This document shows, piece by piece, positions 2,972-29,601 of a DNA stretch of 57,047 nucleotides. Below the pieces are notes generated by a model. That model searched no databases and had not been told where the DNA came from. It worked only from the letters and a program-made list of their open reading frames with translations. Location of the stretch: IMG/VR virus record IMGVR_UViG_3300028887_000082, one strand, 5' to 3'. The DNA is from a virus (taxonomy: Duplodnaviria > Heunggongvirae > Uroviricota > Caudoviricetes). Numbering within the stretch: the stretch's first letter is position 1; the number at the start of each line of letters is the position of its first letter. The position numbers and the translations under genes are program-made.

Positions 2972-3916
2972 ATGAGAAAAATCAGTGAAATATTAAGTGA
3001 ATCTGTCTGGGGTGGAATACTTGACAGGGGTGCTGGAAATAAGATAAGAAAGGAGGATGACATCAATAATCTTGATGGTGAGGGATTATATGATTATATA
3101 AAATCCCATTATAAACTCTTTAATACTATTGATATGGCATATTTACCAGAATCAAGTAGAATTGATGTTCCTATTTTTATGCGTGGAGGTAGTAGAGGAC
3201 TATCTTTCAATTATGAAAAAAAGGTAGTGTTTACAAATTATTTTATGCCATATAGCATATCTGGTTTATTTCCAAAATTGACACATAGATTTACAGTGAA
3301 GGCAGATTCAGATGAAAACCCATCACTTTATATGATTTATCCAAAAGATGATGTTAGAATTGAAGTGACAAACAAATTCTTTATTGAAGTCATTGATTTC
3401 CTTCTGGAAAATGTTCCTGAAAATGATAGATGCATAGAAAAAATAGTTGAAGAATCAGTCTGGGGAGGTATCCTTGACAGAGGTGCTGGTGAGACCATAA
3501 GGAAAGAGAATGATGTGGATAATATGGATCCAGAAACATTCAAAGAATATTTGAAAAGATTATATAAACCTCTGAATTCATATGCCATAATAATCAATTC
3601 AAAAGGTATAATAAGTGTTCCAATTATAAAAAAAGATGTAAATTGTAGTATATGCTTCAACACTAATGTTGAAAAAAATGGTATATCTATTACAGATGAT
3701 ATTATTAATTATGTAAATGGTTTACTCAACAAATTGGAACATATTTATATGGTTGATGAAGTTGATATACAAATAAGTAAGGTTTATATAATCTCACCAA
3801 AGGATGAAAGTGATGTAACAAATTCATTTTTTATTGAAGTGGTTAATTTCCTTTTGAAGAATATACCTGATTCCTACACCAAATCACTTGAAATCATTGA
3901 CAAAAATCATAAATAA
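2972..3916 (+). CDS. two-repeat hypothetical protein, possible internal head protein
   Basis: Two ~155-aa repeats each starting ESVWGGILDRGAG..IRKE. Confidence 0.75.
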   Translation: MRKISEILSESVWGGILDRGAGNKIRKEDDINNLDGEGLYDYIKSHYKLFNTIDMAYLPESSRIDVPIFMRGGSRGLSFNYEKKVVFTNYFMPYSISGLFPKLTHRFTVKADSDENPSLYMIYPKDDVRIEVTNKFFIEVIDFLLENVPENDRCIEKIVEESVWGGILDRGAGETIRKENDVDNMDPETFKEYLKRLYKPLNSYAIIINSKGIISVPIIKKDVNCSICFNTNVEKNGISITDDIINYVNGLLNKLEHIYMVDEVDIQISKVYIISPKDESDVTNSFFIEVVNFLLKNIPDSYTKSLEIIDKNHK

Positions 3917-5220: not shown

Positions 5221-5252
5221 TTTGGATATTTGAAATAAATTCATTATCTTTG
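5221..5252 (+). promoter_or_regulatory. Bacteroidota sigma70-type promoter
   Basis: TTTG (5221) - 20 nt - TATCTTTG (5245). Confidence 0.75.
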
Positions 5253-5271: not shown

Positions 5272-5685
5272 ATGAGTAAAGTAAAAAGACCGCAATTTTT
5301 TGCATTGTACAAGGATTTTCCAAATGGTGAAATAAAACCATATGATGTGCTTGGAGTTATTTTTGACAGGATTTTCACATCAAAGGGGACAATCAGTACC
5401 AATAATTTCTATATCTTTGATGATAAGTGGAACAGGATTCCTGTCAGAACAAAGGAGCAACTCCAGATGTTCATTGATGATTGGTTCAAATATCATTTCT
5501 GGGCAAAGTGTGAATGGGAATTTGTTGTCATAGACTGGCCATATAGGGATACAATAAAGGATTCACATCCTGTCAAGATTGATGTGTACAGTCAGCTCAA
5601 ACCCAATATACCATTCATTACTGATGTGGTATGGAATTACATTGAACCAAAACTTTCAAAACTGATAGCAAAGGAGAATGAATAA
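5272..5685 (+). CDS. hypothetical protein
   Basis: ORF directly after promoter, tightly packed with next gene. Confidence 0.75.
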   Translation: MSKVKRPQFFALYKDFPNGEIKPYDVLGVIFDRIFTSKGTISTNNFYIFDDKWNRIPVRTKEQLQMFIDDWFKYHFWAKCEWEFVVIDWPYRDTIKDSHPVKIDVYSQLKPNIPFITDVVWNYIEPKLSKLIAKENE

Positions 5686-18796: not shown

Positions 18797-19636
18797 ATGT
18801 TCAAACCTTGTGATATATGTCTTGAAGAGACCTGTAAGGGTGCTCATACCTGTAACTGTGATACTTGTAAGGTCAAGGATAAGTGTTACAGGCAACTTGC
18901 CGCAACTATAAGGATAACCAACAGGTGTACCCAGGAGTGTTCTCACTGCTGTTTTGAGAGTTCCCCCAAGTCCAACATTATGATGTCTGTCGAGATGGCC
19001 CGGAACATTGCCAAGTTCATCAATGTAAATGGTGTAGAAAGACTGAACCTTATGGGTGGTGAATTCTTCTGCAACCCTGACTGGTTTGAGATCTATTCCA
19101 CACTTATTGACACCAATGTGAATCATGCCAGGTTGGTGACCAATGGTGACTGGGTGAACAGTGAAAAGACCAAGACACAAATCAAGGAACTGGTTGACAG
19201 ATTCGGAAAGAAGATTTATTTCTGCATCTCCAAAGATAAGTGGCATACCAACAAGAATGTGGATGCTGCCAAGGAATATCTGGACAGTATTGGTACAATT
19301 GCACTTGTTGCCACAGAGGAACAAACCAAGAATGAGTCAATTGTCCCTGTGGGAAGGGCACATCTCCAATATATCAGCGGAATCTATGATATGATGGGAT
19401 GTTACTGCCAGAATCCGGAGAATATGTATTCCTTCCTCATTGATGAAAAAGGTGAGATATACAAGTGTGGATTTGGTGTCATCTCATATGCCAATGTTGA
19501 TGAATATCTGGAAGGTGGTTTCAGAGAGAGGTTCAAGGAGGCAAACTCCAAATTCTACAAACAGTTTATAGCATCTTGTAGGAGTTGTTACAATTTTGTA
19601 TTGGTAAAAGCAAGGGATAGGATTGTAGAATATTGA
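18797..19636 (+). CDS. radical SAM protein with Cys-rich N-terminus and SPASM/twitch-like C-terminus
   Basis: CTQECSHC (CxxxCxxC), MGGEFF, C-terminal CYC...YKCG...CRSC. Confidence 0.85.
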   Translation: MFKPCDICLEETCKGAHTCNCDTCKVKDKCYRQLAATIRITNRCTQECSHCCFESSPKSNIMMSVEMARNIAKFINVNGVERLNLMGGEFFCNPDWFEIYSTLIDTNVNHARLVTNGDWVNSEKTKTQIKELVDRFGKKIYFCISKDKWHTNKNVDAAKEYLDSIGTIALVATEEQTKNESIVPVGRAHLQYISGIYDMMGCYCQNPENMYSFLIDEKGEIYKCGFGVISYANVDEYLEGGFRERFKEANSKFYKQFIASCRSCYNFVLVKARDRIVEY

Positions 19637-24704: not shown

Positions 24705-25247
24705 ATGAAAAAAATTCTCGTTGTCGTCGACATGCAGAACGACTTTCTTACTGGCGCACTCGCCAATGAATCTGCTGTAAATGTTATCCCCAATATCAAG
24801 AGGGAAATCGAAAGTGGTAATTACACCCACATTATCTTTACAAGAGACACCCACACAAGTGATTATCTGAAGACTCAGGAAGGTAAGCTCCTCCCTGTAC
24901 CTCATTGTATCTATCTCACAAAGGGTTGGGAAGTCTGTGAGGAACTTGAGGATGCTGATTTCAAAGGCATTGAACCAATGTTCCTTGACAAACCGACATT
25001 TGGTTACAATGATTGGATTGGTTATTTTGACAATAACTATCTGATAGGTAATGACTCAGAGTTCACATTTACCGGTACTTGCACCGACATCTGTGTAGTA
25101 AGTAATGCACTTGCAATCAAGGCAGCCTTCCCTGAAGCAAAGGTAAGATGTCTTGCTGACTGCTGTGCACCTCTCTTTGGTGACCCCAAGAGACAGGAAT
25201 CAGCACTCACTGTCATGGAATCATGTCAGGTGGAAGTTGTTAGGTAA
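24705..25247 (+). CDS. pncA: nicotinamidase (isochorismatase family)
   Basis: VVDMQNDF, DTH, PHC, DKPTFG, GTCTDICV. Confidence 0.85.
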   Translation: MKKILVVVDMQNDFLTGALANESAVNVIPNIKREIESGNYTHIIFTRDTHTSDYLKTQEGKLLPVPHCIYLTKGWEVCEELEDADFKGIEPMFLDKPTFGYNDWIGYFDNNYLIGNDSEFTFTGTCTDICVVSNALAIKAAFPEAKVRCLADCCAPLFGDPKRQESALTVMESCQVEVVR

Positions 25248-25263: not shown

Positions 25264-26085
25264 ATGGAATACGTCGCCGGAAGATCAAATCTCGCTTGTA
25301 CTATCTTTGTACCCTTTGATTGTGACAATAATTGTCCTTTCTGTACTTCAAAGTGGATGTACAGGGAATCTGGAATTGAAATGAACATTGACAGAATCCT
25401 TGAAATGATAAGGTATGTCAATGAATCACCTGTCATTTCAGAATTTGTCATTACCGGTGGTGAACCTACTGCCAATCTCACACTTCTCAAAAAGATTGTT
25501 GATGTCTGTCAGAAAAAGGTATTTATCAACACCACCCTCCCCAAGAAAAACATTGATGCTGTTATTGAGTATCTGAATAGTGAGGATAAGATTTGTGGTG
25601 TCAATGTTTCCCGTCAGTTTGGTAAGCTCAACAATCTTTATAAGTATGTCGCCAGTCCTGAAGACATTCTTAAAATCAGGACTTCCATCAGAATCAATGT
25701 GATGAGAACCAAGGATTGGATCGAGAACCTGGACCAGTTTATGGAAACCTGGATCAGAAGGTCTGACATTCTCCTCAATCTACGTGAGGATTACCGTTAC
25801 ATCACAAAGGAAAATCTCAAGCTCAGGAATGATATAGTTGATTACCTCGCAAACCGTTTCGTGTATGTTGGAGGTAGTGGTTGTATGGTTTGTAATGGTG
25901 AGACATTCGTCAATCCTAATACAGACCAGTTTATCCACTATCACAGAGGTATTGAACACTCTTGTGTGAGATATGCAGACAGAACCTATGTCAATGATGT
26001 CATTATCCGTCCGGATGGAAGGGTATATGATGACTGGGACTGGTCTGTTGAGATGGATGGAGATACAATTAAACATATCAAGTGA
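25264..26085 (+). CDS. radical SAM protein
   Basis: CDNNCPFC (CxxxCxxC), ITGGEPT, C-terminal CMVC and HSC. Confidence 0.85.
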   Translation: MEYVAGRSNLACTIFVPFDCDNNCPFCTSKWMYRESGIEMNIDRILEMIRYVNESPVISEFVITGGEPTANLTLLKKIVDVCQKKVFINTTLPKKNIDAVIEYLNSEDKICGVNVSRQFGKLNNLYKYVASPEDILKIRTSIRINVMRTKDWIENLDQFMETWIRRSDILLNLREDYRYITKENLKLRNDIVDYLANRFVYVGGSGCMVCNGETFVNPNTDQFIHYHRGIEHSCVRYADRTYVNDVIIRPDGRVYDDWDWSVEMDGDTIKHIK

Positions 26086-26127
26086 TTATAACCAAGAAAT
26101 TTATTGATATAACAAAATAAGAAAACT

Positions 26128-26280
26128 ATGTGTGGATATTCTAATTACAGATACTCCAGTGGCTGTGGATCATCAGGCTGTGGATCATCAGGTTGCGGAG
26201 GTGGAGATTACAGACAATATCGTCCATCATATGGTGGATGTGGTTCATCAGGTTGTGGGGGATCCTGGGGTTGTGGTTAA
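26128..26280 (+). CDS. 50-aa Gly/Cys/Ser-rich repeat peptide, candidate radical-SAM substrate (absent from ORF track)
   Basis: MCGYSNYRYSSGCGSSGCGSSGCGGGDYRQYRPSYGGCGSSGCGGSWGCG*; fills the gap between radical SAM gene and the next promoter. Confidence 0.75.
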   Translation: MCGYSNYRYSSGCGSSGCGSSGCGGGDYRQYRPSYGGCGSSGCGGSWGCG

Positions 26281-26284
26281 AAAA

Positions 26285-26316
26285 ATTGGAAAACCCAAAA
26301 TAAAACATTATATTTG
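26285..26316 (+). promoter_or_regulatory. Bacteroidota sigma70-type promoter (variant -33)
   Basis: ATTG (26285) - 20 nt - TATATTTG (26309). Confidence 0.6.
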
Positions 26317-26335
26317 TAACAAGAAAGTAAAAGAT

Positions 26336-27166
26336 ATGATTACAGTAAATCACAGATTAGTAAAAGTTGGGCATTTCCCTGATGGTACACAGTGTATTGT
26401 GTTTCCATCTGATGCCCTCTGGAAAGAGCTGGATAATCCAAATGAGATTTCCTGGTATTATGATTCGGATGAAGAGTTATTTACTCTTGCATGCACTGTG
26501 GACTGGATTCACAGGACTGATGTAAAGAAGAGCAGACTCATTCTGAATCTCCCCTATGTTCCCAATGCCAGAATGGACAGAATCAAGGATGATATTGAGA
26601 ATTTCTCACTTAAGGTATTTGCAAATTTCATCAACTCAATGGGATTTGATGAAGTCAATGTGTACAATGTCCATTCCAATGTAAGTGAGGCACTGATTAA
26701 CAGTGTACATTCTTCAAAACCTGCTGCTGATATTATTTCAGCAATAGACAAATATCAACCAGATGTCATTTTCTTCCCAGATGAAGGTGCATGTAAAAGG
26801 TATTATGACCTGGGAGTCATCAAGAATTCCGGTCTCCCTGTTACATTCGGTATCAAGAAAAGAGACTGGAAGACAGGAAAAATCCAGGGATTGAATGTCA
26901 TTTCAGATATTGACCTCACTGGAAAGAAGGTTCTTATCATTGATGACATCTGTTCGGCTGGTGGAACATTCAAGTTCTCTGCAATAAAACTCAAGGAGAT
27001 GGGTGCTTCTGATGTTGCTCTTTATGTATCACACTGTGAGGACAATATTCAGAATGGAGACCTCCTTAAGACTGACCTGGTATCAAAGATTTATACCACA
27101 GACTCAATCCTCCACATCACTGATCCCAAGATTGAGATTATACACAAAATGAGAATAACACTATGA
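26336..27166 (+). CDS. prs: ribose-phosphate pyrophosphokinase-like protein (Prs / possible Adps)
   Basis: PYVPNARMDR, FPDEGA, LIIDDICSAGGTF; true start ATG 26336. Confidence 0.85.
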   Translation: MITVNHRLVKVGHFPDGTQCIVFPSDALWKELDNPNEISWYYDSDEELFTLACTVDWIHRTDVKKSRLILNLPYVPNARMDRIKDDIENFSLKVFANFINSMGFDEVNVYNVHSNVSEALINSVHSSKPAADIISAIDKYQPDVIFFPDEGACKRYYDLGVIKNSGLPVTFGIKKRDWKTGKIQGLNVISDIDLTGKKVLIIDDICSAGGTFKFSAIKLKEMGASDVALYVSHCEDNIQNGDLLKTDLVSKIYTTDSILHITDPKIEIIHKMRITL

Positions 27167-28074
27167 GTATAATGAATTATAAGATATTTGAATCATCCAA
27201 TAAGGATGTAAAGAAGTTTGTCTTCACAAAAGACAATGAAGATGGTACCAGGGATATTGCCGTTGAGGCAGTCCTTTACAGATATGGAAACTATGCAACC
27301 AGGACCGTCATCTGTTGTTCAACCCAGTGTGGTTGTCCTGTAGGATGCAGTTTCTGTGGAACAGGAAAGTTCTTTGTAAGAAACCTCACCTGGGAGGAGA
27401 TATGTGAACAGGTTATATCAGTTCTTTCAACCATTGACTGTGAGACCTCTGAAATCAAGAAGTTCCAGATTATGTTTATGAGTATGGGTGAACCCTTCCT
27501 CAACTACTACAATCTGGAAACTGCAATCAGAGTACTGCATGAGAAATATCCCAATGCACAGCTTCTTGTCAGTACATCTGCACCCACATCAATGAAGAAT
27601 CACTTTGATGAGTTCATTGCTCTTTCAAAGGAGATTGACAAGGTTGGTTTGCAGTTCTCTGTCCATGAGTCTCTTGATGAGAACAGAAGGAAACTCATTC
27701 CCACCAACACATCAACCCTGAAGGAGATTTCAGAATATGGTGAACTCTGGGCATCCCAGGTAGGAAGAAAGGTGTTCTACAACTATTGTGTACACCCGGG
27801 TAATGATTCGGAGGAGGATGCAGACAGACTTATCAAACTGTTCAACCCCGCTTGTTGGGAAACAACCCTTTCAGTCATCTGTGAAAAATCAGAAAGTGTG
27901 AAGTCAAGTATTGAAAGACAGCTTGAAATAATCAACACATTTGCAGGTTATCTCACCCAGAAAGGTGCATCCCTCAGAATATTCAACCCTGCCGGACAGG
28001 ATGACATAGGTGGTGGTTGTGGTCAGCTCTGGTTTTTCCAGGAATGGCTCAAAAAGAGAAATAATAACAAATAA
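27163..28074 (+). CDS. RlmN/Cfr-family radical SAM methyltransferase
   Basis: CSTQCGCPVGCSFCGTG, FMSMGEPFLN, C-terminal GGGCGQL. Confidence 0.85.
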   Translation: MSIMNYKIFESSNKDVKKFVFTKDNEDGTRDIAVEAVLYRYGNYATRTVICCSTQCGCPVGCSFCGTGKFFVRNLTWEEICEQVISVLSTIDCETSEIKKFQIMFMSMGEPFLNYYNLETAIRVLHEKYPNAQLLVSTSAPTSMKNHFDEFIALSKEIDKVGLQFSVHESLDENRRKLIPTNTSTLKEISEYGELWASQVGRKVFYNYCVHPGNDSEEDADRLIKLFNPACWETTLSVICEKSESVKSSIERQLEIINTFAGYLTQKGASLRIFNPAGQDDIGGGCGQLWFFQEWLKKRNNNK

Positions 28075-28104: not shown

Positions 28105-29601
28105 ATGATTAATAATACTTTAGCAATTCTTTTGTGTGACACTTATAAGACTTGTCACAACCGTATGTACCCGAAGAACCTTAAGAAACTTACATCTTAT
28201 TGGGTACCCCGTAGATCAATGTTTGAGAAACCTGAAAACCAGAAGATGGTCTGGTTTGGTATGCAGGCCTTTGTCCAGGAGTGGCTCATTGACTACTTCC
28301 AGAGAAACTTCTTTGATCTTCCTCTCAACAGAGTAATGAAGGAATACAAGTTCACAATGAATATCCAGATTGGTGAGGGTAACTATGATGTTGAACCCAT
28401 TGAAAATCTTCACACACTTGGTTATCTTCCTTTGGAGATCAATGCTCTTCCTGAGGGTTCACTGGTGAATATGGGTGTTCCTTGTATTGAGATTACAAAT
28501 ACAGTTGATGGATTTGCATGGTTGGTTCAGTGGATTGAGTGTATCCTCCAGTCTGAACTTTGGAAGACTTCAAACCATGCCACAATCGGTCATATGTACT
28601 ACAAGTTGGCAAAGTACTGGTATGACAAGTCTGTTGATGACAACATTGATCCGCGAAATGCATTCGCAGATTTTGGAATGAGAGGTATGTCTTGTATGAA
28701 TGAGGCTGTCCGCTGTTCAGCAGCCTGGCTTCTCTCATCAAACAAGACCAGTACCATAGCAGCAATTCCTTATCTGGATGAGTATTATGATGCAGACTGT
28801 TCATTCAACCATATAGGTGTTGGCGCAGTTTCTACTGAACACTCTGTAATGGGTGCCAACTATGCCCTTGATGGTGATGAGAGAACCTTTGTAAAGAGAC
28901 TTCTCACTGAACTATATCCTACATCAAGTTTCTCAATGGTATCTGATACCTATGACTACTGGAATATGGTAGAGAACATCATTCCTTCACTCAAGGATGA
29001 GATTCTTGCACACAAGGGTAAACTCCTTATCCGCCCTGACTCTGGTGACCAGTATGAGACCACAGTTGAGACTGTCCAGAAACTCTGGGATTCTTTCGGT
29101 GGTACTGTCAACAGTAAGGGTTACAAGGTACTTGACTCACACATTGGTGTAATCCTGGGTGACGGATGTACTCTTAATGTACTCCGCAAGATCTGGAAGG
29201 AACTTGACCGTCGTGGATTTGCCGCCAACAATGCCATCTTTGGTGTGGGTGCTTTCTGCTTCACTGCAATATTTGAGGGTGACAAGATGATTGTCAACAC
29301 CAGAGATACCTATGGTTGTGCTTGTAAGGCTACCTATGGTGTATTTGGTGACCAGGAACTCAAAATCTATAAGGATCCCAAGACTGATACATCACATCTC
29401 AAGAAGTCTCACAGAGGTCTTGTATTTGTGGAGAAGGTTGATGGTGAATATATCTACAAGGATGACATGCTTCAGGCAGAATATGATGAGTATGCAAAGA
29501 CTCACAAGTCAGCTCTGAGAACAGTCTTCAAGGATGGTAAGATGCACAACCGTGAGACCTTCACAACTATCCGTGACCGTCTCGCTAATGAAAAGGATTA
29601 A
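28105..29601 (+). CDS. nadV: nicotinamide/nicotinate phosphoribosyltransferase family (NAMPT / possible Namat)
   Basis: CDTYKTCH, DFGMRG, STEHSV, VSDTYD, IRPDSGD, FGVG. Confidence 0.9.
   Translation: MINNTLAILLCDTYKTCHNRMYPKNLKKLTSYWVPRRSMFEKPENQKMVWFGMQAFVQEWLIDYFQRNFFDLPLNRVMKEYKFTMNIQIGEGNYDVEPIENLHTLGYLPLEINALPEGSLVNMGVPCIEITNTVDGFAWLVQWIECILQSELWKTSNHATIGHMYYKLAKYWYDKSVDDNIDPRNAFADFGMRGMSCMNEAVRCSAAWLLSSNKTSTIAAIPYLDEYYDADCSFNHIGVGAVSTEHSVMGANYALDGDERTFVKRLLTELYPTSSFSMVSDTYDYWNMVENIIPSLKDEILAHKGKLLIRPDSGDQYETTVETVQKLWDSFGGTVNSKGYKVLDSHIGVILGDGCTLNVLRKIWKELDRRGFAANNAIFGVGAFCFTAIFEGDKMIVNTRDTYGCACKATYGVFGDQELKIYKDPKTDTSHLKKSHRGLVFVEKVDGEYIYKDDMLQAEYDEYAKTHKSALRTVFKDGKMHNRETFTTIRDRLANEKD

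Follow-up and report, generated by a model that had tools for sequence, protein, structure and literature searches.

Pairs of a radical S-adenosylmethionine (SAM) enzyme and a peptide are a main source of new peptide chemistry. In the SCIFF/ranthipeptide systems (Tte1186, CteB, PapB) and the sactipeptide systems (AlbA, SkfB, GggB) a radical SAM gene stands beside the gene for a short Cys-rich peptide with a multi-site core. Gene clusters for peptides that are made on ribosomes and modified after translation (RiPPs) are reported to be rare in phages, where they mostly specify bacteriocins of temperate phages (bioRxiv 10.1101/2020.10.01.322628). The same arrangement of genes is found in a 57,047-nt stretch of DNA (here called the window) from the Caudoviricetes virus record IMGVR_UViG_3300028887_000082 of IMG/VR, in which a Cys-Gly-rich open reading frame (ORF) of 50 codons, missed by the annotation track, follows the gene for a radical SAM enzyme with a CxxxCxxC motif. 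Comparison of this locus with its relatives suggests that the peptide is, on balance, a dedicated partner of the upstream enzyme and most probably its substrate, the two genes forming a module. The concept of a radical SAM enzyme with an adjacent Cys-rich peptide is already known; what is new is the architecture of the enzyme, together with its partner's motif, how often the two are fused and their confinement to phages. Literature searches found nothing specific on phage radical SAM peptide systems of this kind, and no paper or curated family describing the module.

The window enzyme shares features with several described systems. CteB and SkfB are among its fold neighbours, and a thioether from Cys to the C-alpha of Gly exists in streptosactin (PMC8172795). 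Unlike the sacti- and ranthipeptide systems, the phage family has no SPASM/twitch Cys set and no recognised RiPP recognition element (RRE), its partners carry a [G/S]-C-G motif and frequently a C-terminal Cys, many of the peptides lack a leader or are fused to the enzyme, and the whole is almost exclusively phage-borne and travels without a protease or exporter. In Methanococcus voltae the radical SAM enzyme CrpC, encoded beside the Cys-rich protein CrpA, which is not a classical short RiPP, carries out thioether (ranthionine) cross-linking of that protein (PMC13692751), and several phage partners are likewise 100–220 aa long; CrpC, however, has an RRE and a SPASM domain with three clusters, and the phage family has neither. 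The epimerase YydG/EpeE (PDB 8AI1–8AI6), which with MoaA is the closest solved protein by sequence profile (E 3e-4), is a compact enzyme of about 320 aa that abstracts C-alpha hydrogens from peptides without a full SPASM domain. Here the similarity is confined to the radical SAM core, the substrates are unrelated, and Gly cannot be epimerised, whereas Cys could be; TIGR04078 (YydG) is not among the NCBIfam matches of the enzyme at E up to 0.1.

The best whole-length structural match, C-terminal part included, is to the GTP 3',8-cyclase MoaA (Z 15.4 over 246 residues). The C-terminal CxxC-x13-C auxiliary cluster of MoaA has an open iron site. The phage enzyme differs in scoring far under the NCBIfam cut-off for MoaA, in having His rather than Cys at the third ligand position, and in being partnered with a peptide and not with a nucleotide pathway. 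The CXXX-repeat (TIGR04114/TIGR04115) and His-Xaa-Ser repeat (HxsA-D) systems, both defined in silico, also combine a peptide of short repeated motifs with a dedicated radical SAM enzyme. The better NCBIfam matches of the phage enzyme include HxsC and HxsB, yet far under the cut-offs (28.7 versus 267.9 bits); the CXXX models are unmatched, and the spacing of Cys in the phage partners is mostly 5 or 10–11, not 4.

The enzyme gene and its Cys-Gly-rich partner

An alignment of 25 enzyme homologues was used as the query for related loci, and gave 22 viral loci, 80 metagenomic loci and 5 loci from metagenome-assembled genomes (MAGs). There were 87 informative loci with enough flanking sequence, their enzymes being 33–97% identical to that of the window. 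With 'CG-rich' defined as 3 or more 'CG' dipeptides in 40 aa, an ORF of this type was found no more than 1.3 kb from the enzyme gene in 74 of the 87: directly downstream in 50, both downstream and convergent in 8, fused to the enzyme in 6, upstream in 4 and convergent in 3, with one further off in the last 3. Counted by lineage, a partner is present in 41 of 52 clusters at 90% identity, 18 of 26 at 70% and 13 of 16 at 55%. The same definition gave 2 matches in 145.6 kb of the far flanks of related loci, and the window peptide is the sole CG-rich ORF in all six frames both of the window and of the whole 153.6-kb virus record. An exhaustive profile search of 1.84 billion representatives yielded 191 enzyme clusters (50% identity) at E < 1e-30; a CG-rich tail is fused to the C-terminus of the enzyme in 44 of the 148 cluster representatives retrieved, about 30% (P0118 and L018, for example). 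No other gene family was common to more than 11 of 93 loci when neighbours were clustered. The co-occurrence of GCG-repeat ORFs with this radical SAM family, raised as a check in the original prediction, is thus strongly borne out.

The length of the enzyme and the type of partner also co-vary. Enzymes of 268–273 aa occur mostly with leaderless peptides of the window's type; those of 302–309 aa have partners in which a leader of 19–22 residues precedes the first CG and closes with [RK]-hydrophobic-[NTS]-x-CG; and those of 339–341 aa occur mostly with peptides in which a conserved N-terminal region of about 45 residues ('LLFIDSDDI..LSEAL..ALERRG') is joined through an acidic linker to a C-terminal core. 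Some partners are proteins of 100–220 aa with a further domain past the core. Two CG-rich partners are present in L011, L013–L015, L064, L066, L072 and L081, one of them a 66-aa peptide on the same strand and the other a convergent, minus-strand product of 115–207 aa encoded about 0.4–1 kb past the enzyme, in which a leader of 22 residues (..LLEAKEILK.KGYTV.RLNECG..) is followed by a long core of Cys, Ser and Gly and by an extra C-terminal domain.

The window ORF is intact and opens with ATG. Each of its Cys residues precedes Gly, the first within MCG and the other six within GCG, and GCGSS occurs three times; this description, first given in the original prediction, is exact in both the sequence and the ORF list, and the coordinates likewise confirm that the start lies 42 nt past the stop codon of the enzyme ORF (Table 1). 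The peptide frame is kept in relatives whose enzymes are 97% (L028), 83–86% (L001, L029–L032) and 70–77% (L003, L004, L035) identical to that of the window, and in each of them a homologous peptide (44–92% identity) is encoded downstream of the enzyme. Common to these peptides are GCG units, Y-x-x-[YF]-R motifs and the opening MCGYSN[YF]R, while indels set them apart. Most nucleotide differences between relatives are at the third position of the codon: between the window and L001, for example, there are 9, 10 and 22 differences at codon positions 1, 2 and 3, and 16 synonymous against 13 non-synonymous codons, with many of the synonymous changes in Cys and Gly codons, which is a pattern of codon constraint. 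Since GCG-repeat ORFs and this enzyme family co-occur so strongly, the 50-codon ORF is, on comparative sequence evidence, a genuine gene that is functionally tied to the enzyme.

The contrary view would be that the ORF is never translated and arose only because the intergenic spacer holds a GC-rich tandem repeat. Part of it is indeed a perfect 15-nt repeat, a second frame across it is also open as a side effect of composition, no Shine-Dalgarno sequence is visible, and one relative, L033, has lost the peptide ORF. Noise could not, however, have produced the adjacency and fusion to the enzyme ORF that are seen throughout the family, nor do an ATG-started frame with a conserved beginning in the relatives and an excess of third-position and synonymous changes fit with it; this explanation has next to no chance of being correct and is already effectively refuted. 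Read-through or frameshifting into the prs-like gene by way of the overlapping open frame was also ruled out, that frame being due to composition only and a different gene following the peptide in L001. In L033, from the human gut, the degenerate peptide sequence lies at 3801–3881 (..ICGYSNHY.., no ATG) and is overlapped by a hydrophobic open frame of 93 codons.

Table 1. Positions of the features discussed, in window coordinates
Feature	Position	Strand	Description
Radical SAM enzyme	25264..26085	+	273 aa; CxxxCxxC C20/C24/C27; C207-x2-C210 on C-terminal beta-hairpin, then H227; no SPASM
Cys-Gly peptide ORF	26128..26280	+	leaderless, 50 aa, 7 x CG, two Y-x-x-Y-R motifs, GCG end; proposed substrate of the enzyme
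15-nt in-frame tandem repeat	26161..26192	+	perfect, 2.1 copies, codes GCGSS-GCGSS; Tandem Repeats Finder
ORF remnant	26088..26120	+	11 in-frame codons, head and tail, start ATG->ATA; DNA alignment with L001 and L028
TATATTTG	26309..26316	+	Bacteroidota-type -7 box (TAnnTTTG), 20 nt 5' of prs-like ATG 26336
Second open frame	26132..27166		overlaps the peptide ORF
PncA-like gene	24705..25247		
Prs-like gene	26336..27166		
RlmN/Cfr-like radical SAM methyltransferase gene	27163..28074		
NAMPT-like gene	28105..29601		
Other radical SAM gene	18797..19636		
sigma-70-like site	26286..26314		

Through the in-frame tandem repeat the core motif has recently been expanded, and the third copy of GCGSS (26236–26250) uses other synonymous codons than the copies within the repeat. 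The peptides of the window and of L001 have no match in Pfam, NCBIfam or PHROG. The short remnant between the enzyme and the peptide is what is left of an ORF of 156–161 aa that stands in this position in close relatives (L001:4825–5295 and L033:3319–3804, as well as L028; six loci by family clustering) and that has been deleted in the window phage. In the intact form a helix resembling a leader comes first and ..TCGG(GCG).. after it, so that this ORF may encode a second substrate which the window phage has lost.

Partner cores and the enzyme family

The composition of 48 non-redundant partner cores is 29% Gly, 15% Ser, 13% Cys, 7% Tyr and 6% Arg. Gly follows 88% of the 268 Cys in these cores, and the preceding residue is Gly in 53% and Ser in 19%; aromatic residues are enriched 1.9-fold at position -3. 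In the fused tails Cys is followed by Gly in 172 of 201 instances. Spacing between successive Cys is broad, from 4 to 12 with modes at 5 and 10–11, the number of Cys per core ranges from 4 to about 15, and growth of the core by tandem duplication is observed. Such variable numbers and spacing, together with growth by tandem repeats, are typical of a multi-site substrate and unlike a fixed set of cluster ligands. Cys is the exact C-terminal residue of 29 of 40 cores with a free C-terminus and of 31 of 44 fused tails, about 72% overall, and the remaining cores, that of the window peptide included, mostly end in CG or CGG. Gly or Ser is the residue that comes after CG throughout the family.

The enzyme scores 40.8 bits against PF04055 (Radical_SAM), for which the cut-off is 29.5 bits, and its Radical_SAM and Fer4_12 matches cover the N-terminal part only. 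No SPASM family appears among its Pfam matches, and no SPASM or known maturase model was matched in NCBIfam, where only sub-threshold matches were obtained (NrdG2 best, then HxsC, HxsB, QueE and MoaA) and the PapB model, at E 0.006, is far under its cut-off. In 141 representatives of the family C20, C24 and C27 are 99–100% conserved. The only conserved potential ligands outside this motif are C207 and C210 (94% each, at the turn of the beta-hairpin) and H227 (98%), which give the family-conserved pattern CxxC-x16-H; C12 and C234 are not conserved. The original prediction had likened the enzyme to the maturases that form thioether cross-links on adjacent Cys-rich repeat peptides, but Pfam, NCBIfam and residue conservation all indicate that it is not of the SPASM type, and the family lies outside every curated model tested. 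C207, C210 and H227 are insufficient for a classical auxiliary [4Fe-4S] site; as pure conjecture, it is possible that a metal centre there is completed by a thiolate of the substrate.

The AlphaFold2 (AF2) model of the enzyme has a predicted local distance difference test score (pLDDT) of 91.8, and its fold neighbours after MoaA are SuiB (Z 14.6), PqqE (14.5), SkfB (13.7), CteB (12.4) and EpeE (12.3). GDGT-MAS and viperin are also found, and PFL-AE is lower, at Z 11.1. Many of the neighbours by fold or by profile, namely SuiB, PqqE, SkfB, CteB and EpeE/YydG, are peptide-modifying radical SAM enzymes. The conserved leaders of the partners in some subfamilies co-vary with C-terminal extensions of the enzyme; the extension of the 339-aa enzymes is modelled with pLDDT 82 and gave nothing at E < 0.4 in a Foldseek search of the PDB. 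A predicted complex of the enzyme with peptide, SAM and two clusters scored 0.02 and carries no weight either way.

In its N-terminal CxxxCxxC core the enzyme is nearest by hidden Markov model to the activases NrdG and PFL-AE, which it also resembles in its small size and in the C-G of the target motif. It might then be an NrdG-like glycyl-radical activase, with a peptide that mimics the 'RVCGY' radical loop of NrdD as a spare part, a decoy or a store of the radical; the window peptide opens MCGYS, its relatives repeat CGYS, and the enzyme gene adjoins NrdD or NrdG in some relatives. We consider this very improbable. NrdG2 (TIGR02495), although the best NCBIfam match, scores only 39.1 versus 131 bits, far under the cut-off, and TIGR02491 scores 25 versus 126 bits; the fold match to PFL-AE is weaker than those to the peptide-modifying enzymes; Tyr follows CG in only 6% of cases and is not enriched; and scans with Pfam and NCBIfam found no glycyl-radical domain in the peptide. 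All five near-complete relatives (94–100% by CheckV) have a separate NrdG-type gene of 160–178 aa beside NrdD, which in three of them exceeds the TIGR02491 cut-off. The phage enzyme, by contrast, is a separate paralogue with an extra C-terminal domain of about 70 aa, and its partners are peptides and not glycyl-radical enzymes. Its identity with the NrdD activase itself was rejected, given the separate NrdG-type genes of the relatives and its scores under the NrdG cut-offs.

A different role for the Cys-Gly sequences would be as an accessory part of the enzyme, supplying thiolate ligands to an auxiliary Fe-S or other metal centre, acting as an Fe-S or electron carrier, or serving as a sacrificial sulfur donor for another substrate. 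Fusion of the tail in some 30% of the family is a classic signature of a subunit, the conserved Cys of the enzyme are too few for a full auxiliary cluster, and the partner sequence is thiol-rich and flexible. The variation in the number and spacing of the Cys and the expansion by tandem repeats are nevertheless unlike structural ligand sets; 7–15 CG motifs are more than one or two missing ligands would need; the strict rule that Gly follows Cys, and the many cores that end in Cys, resemble features of catalytic recognition; and no gene for a second candidate substrate is co-conserved. An accessory role is accordingly judged unlikely, though it is the strongest competitor to a substrate role. 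The metal- or Fe-S-binding peptide that had been offered in the original prediction alongside a modified peptide survives as such a competitor, the modified peptide being the best reading.

The candidate reaction

A dedicated and co-evolving pair, its fusion in many members, an invariant C-G in a disordered sequence that expands by repeats, and a frequent C-terminal Cys are best accommodated if the enzyme acts on the peptide. With a [4Fe-4S] cluster bound at CxxxCxxC, the enzyme would cleave SAM to the 5'-deoxyadenosyl radical, which would abstract hydrogen within or beside the [G/S]-C-G motifs of a disordered polypeptide rich in Gly, Ser, Cys, Tyr and Arg. This polypeptide would be provided in trans by a neighbouring gene, as in the window, or in cis as a tail at the enzyme's own C-terminus. 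A second metal centre, able to accept a substrate thiolate, may be present at the C207-x2-C210...H227 site. The outcome might be covalent Cys-based cross-links, in the form of thioethers of the sacti- or ranthi-type, possibly onto the C-alpha of Gly. The known thioether of streptosactin joins Cys31 to Gly34.

Thioether cross-linking is the leading guess for the chemistry. Epimerisation of Cys, sulfur donation with formation of dehydroalanine, and decarboxylation of the C-terminal Cys rank after it as candidates. That a phage-restricted, non-SPASM radical SAM family carries out an as yet undescribed reaction on disordered Cys-Gly tails, in trans or at its own C-terminus, is a more speculative proposal, and one that we advance only tentatively. 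In one form of it the C-alpha hydrogen of Gly would be abstracted in each C-G unit and the radical captured by a thiol, giving either a six-membered S-C-alpha ring within the motif or cross-links between motifs.

Several observations weigh against a substrate role for the peptide. We infer that role from genomics only. The enzyme lacks the SPASM/twitch Cys set and has two conserved Cys and one conserved His outside the radical SAM motif, and to our knowledge all characterised sacti- and ranthipeptide synthases have auxiliary clusters. The peptide of the window lacks a leader, and nothing like an RRE was recognised. Neither the clustering of neighbours at 93 loci nor a scan with Pfam of 120 ORFs that neighbour the enzyme at 31 diverse loci revealed a co-conserved protease or transporter. 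A CG-rich ORF at the threshold is absent from 13 of the 87 informative loci, two of which have weaker ones, and L033, with an enzyme 83% identical to that of the window, retains the enzyme and the 161-aa ORF while its peptide is degenerate. Lastly, the fusion of enzyme and partner suits the relation of a subunit or a cofactor donor equally well.

Of the phage RiPP pair put forward in the original prediction, the pairing of enzyme and peptide therefore stands, whereas a classical secreted RiPP is doubtful because the window peptide has no leader, a co-conserved protease or exporter is lacking and about 30% of the family representatives carry the peptide as a fused tail. Since the pair is not accompanied by such a gene, its role is probably intracellular, during infection. 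If the family does carry out an undescribed reaction of the speculative kind above, its products would form a novel class of modified peptides or proteins that giant phages deploy inside anaerobic hosts, whether as scaffolds with cross-links, as agents of metal or redox chemistry or as factors against host defence. The enzyme is compact and without the auxiliary-cluster domain that is thought necessary for Cys cross-linking, and its natural fusions and leaderless candidate substrates of 40–58 aa offer an unusually easy system for reconstitution, the result of which would show what chemistry a C-G motif can undergo with a minimal radical SAM enzyme and what giant phages gain from it while they infect.

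Genomic setting and distribution

Nearly all members of the enzyme family are viral, and it is almost confined to very large phages of the gut, the rumen and similar anaerobic communities. A full-length member was found in only 2 of 301 sampled Clostridia genomes, the five 'genome' matches of the family are MAG contigs, and the nearest ESM-Atlas clusters are 75–100% viral. Among GenBank phages, tblastn with the enzyme found only two unannotated faecal phage fragments (31–33% identity), and a DNA search with the 3.4-kb region gave only short unrelated matches.

In the window the pair lies between the PncA-like and Prs-like genes, with the NAMPT-like gene further downstream (Table 1). This setting in a cluster for nicotinamide adenine dinucleotide (NAD) salvage invites the thought that the pair makes a small molecule or cofactor derived from the peptide, in the manner of PqqA/PqqE or MftA/MftC and perhaps linked to NAD, with the C-terminal Cys or CG units excised after the radical chemistry. 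Such a product would be in keeping with the many cores that end in Cys and with the rank of PqqE among the top fold matches, and the NAPRTase family is the commonest Pfam neighbour in diverse loci. It accounts, however, for only 3 of the 120 neighbour ORFs; in the complete relatives the NAPRTase gene is 3.6, 26 or 44 kb away (the two larger distances in G002 and G003) or is absent (G004, G005); and neither a peptidase nor a tailoring enzyme is conserved along with the pair. Within the enzyme family a setting among NAD-salvage genes is not the general case and makes a weak link, and a cofactor pathway seems to us distinctly improbable, more so than an accessory role for the peptide.

In other relatives the module directly follows the genes of anaerobic ribonucleotide reductase, either NrdD or NrdD and then NrdG (L076–L079, L082 and G003, where the order at 145.5–150.6 kb is NrdD, NrdG, radical SAM enzyme, CG peptide). 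The record to which the window belongs is about 64% complete, and no NrdD was found in it.

The radical SAM enzyme encoded at 18797 had been suggested as a second possible maturase. It has a YydG/AlbA-like core and a Cys-rich stretch N-terminal to its CxxxCxxC motif, and no Cys-rich peptide is encoded nearby. Since none of the five near-complete relatives that carry the paired enzyme has an orthologue of it, it is not a second maturase, and it was rejected as a partner, its only link being a weak core match to an extra radical SAM enzyme of one relative. An additional radical SAM gene (L001:5500–6423, in a 411-kb relative) specifies 307 aa with a MoaA-like N-terminus and stands directly after the peptide and before the prs-like gene; in the record of the window it has no orthologue, only a weak match to the enzyme at 18797.

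A promoter separating the peptide from prs had also been proposed. A sigma-70-like site and a TAnnTTTG box do exist there, but both motifs occur at near chance frequency and make weak evidence: 62 TAnnTTTG motifs were found across the window against 55 expected, and the sigma-70-like site is one of 7 in the region where 8.2 are expected by chance. A scan for terminators found none 3' of the peptide, and the scan for sigma-70 sites and terminators was overall at chance level. The box TATATTTG might, on this weak evidence, show where the following transcription unit starts and so where the enzyme-peptide pair ends on its downstream side. TAnnTTTG boxes at 5245, 12606, 26309 and 31994 lie 20–24 nt 5' of the ATG codons at 5272, 12635, 26336 and 32025, a placement that fits Bacteroidota-type promoters. 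Beyond the Prs-like gene, and before the NAMPT-like gene, comes a radical SAM methyltransferase of RlmN/Cfr type, which scores 109 bits to the RlmN model, under the cut-off, and which occupies an odd position for an RNA methylase.

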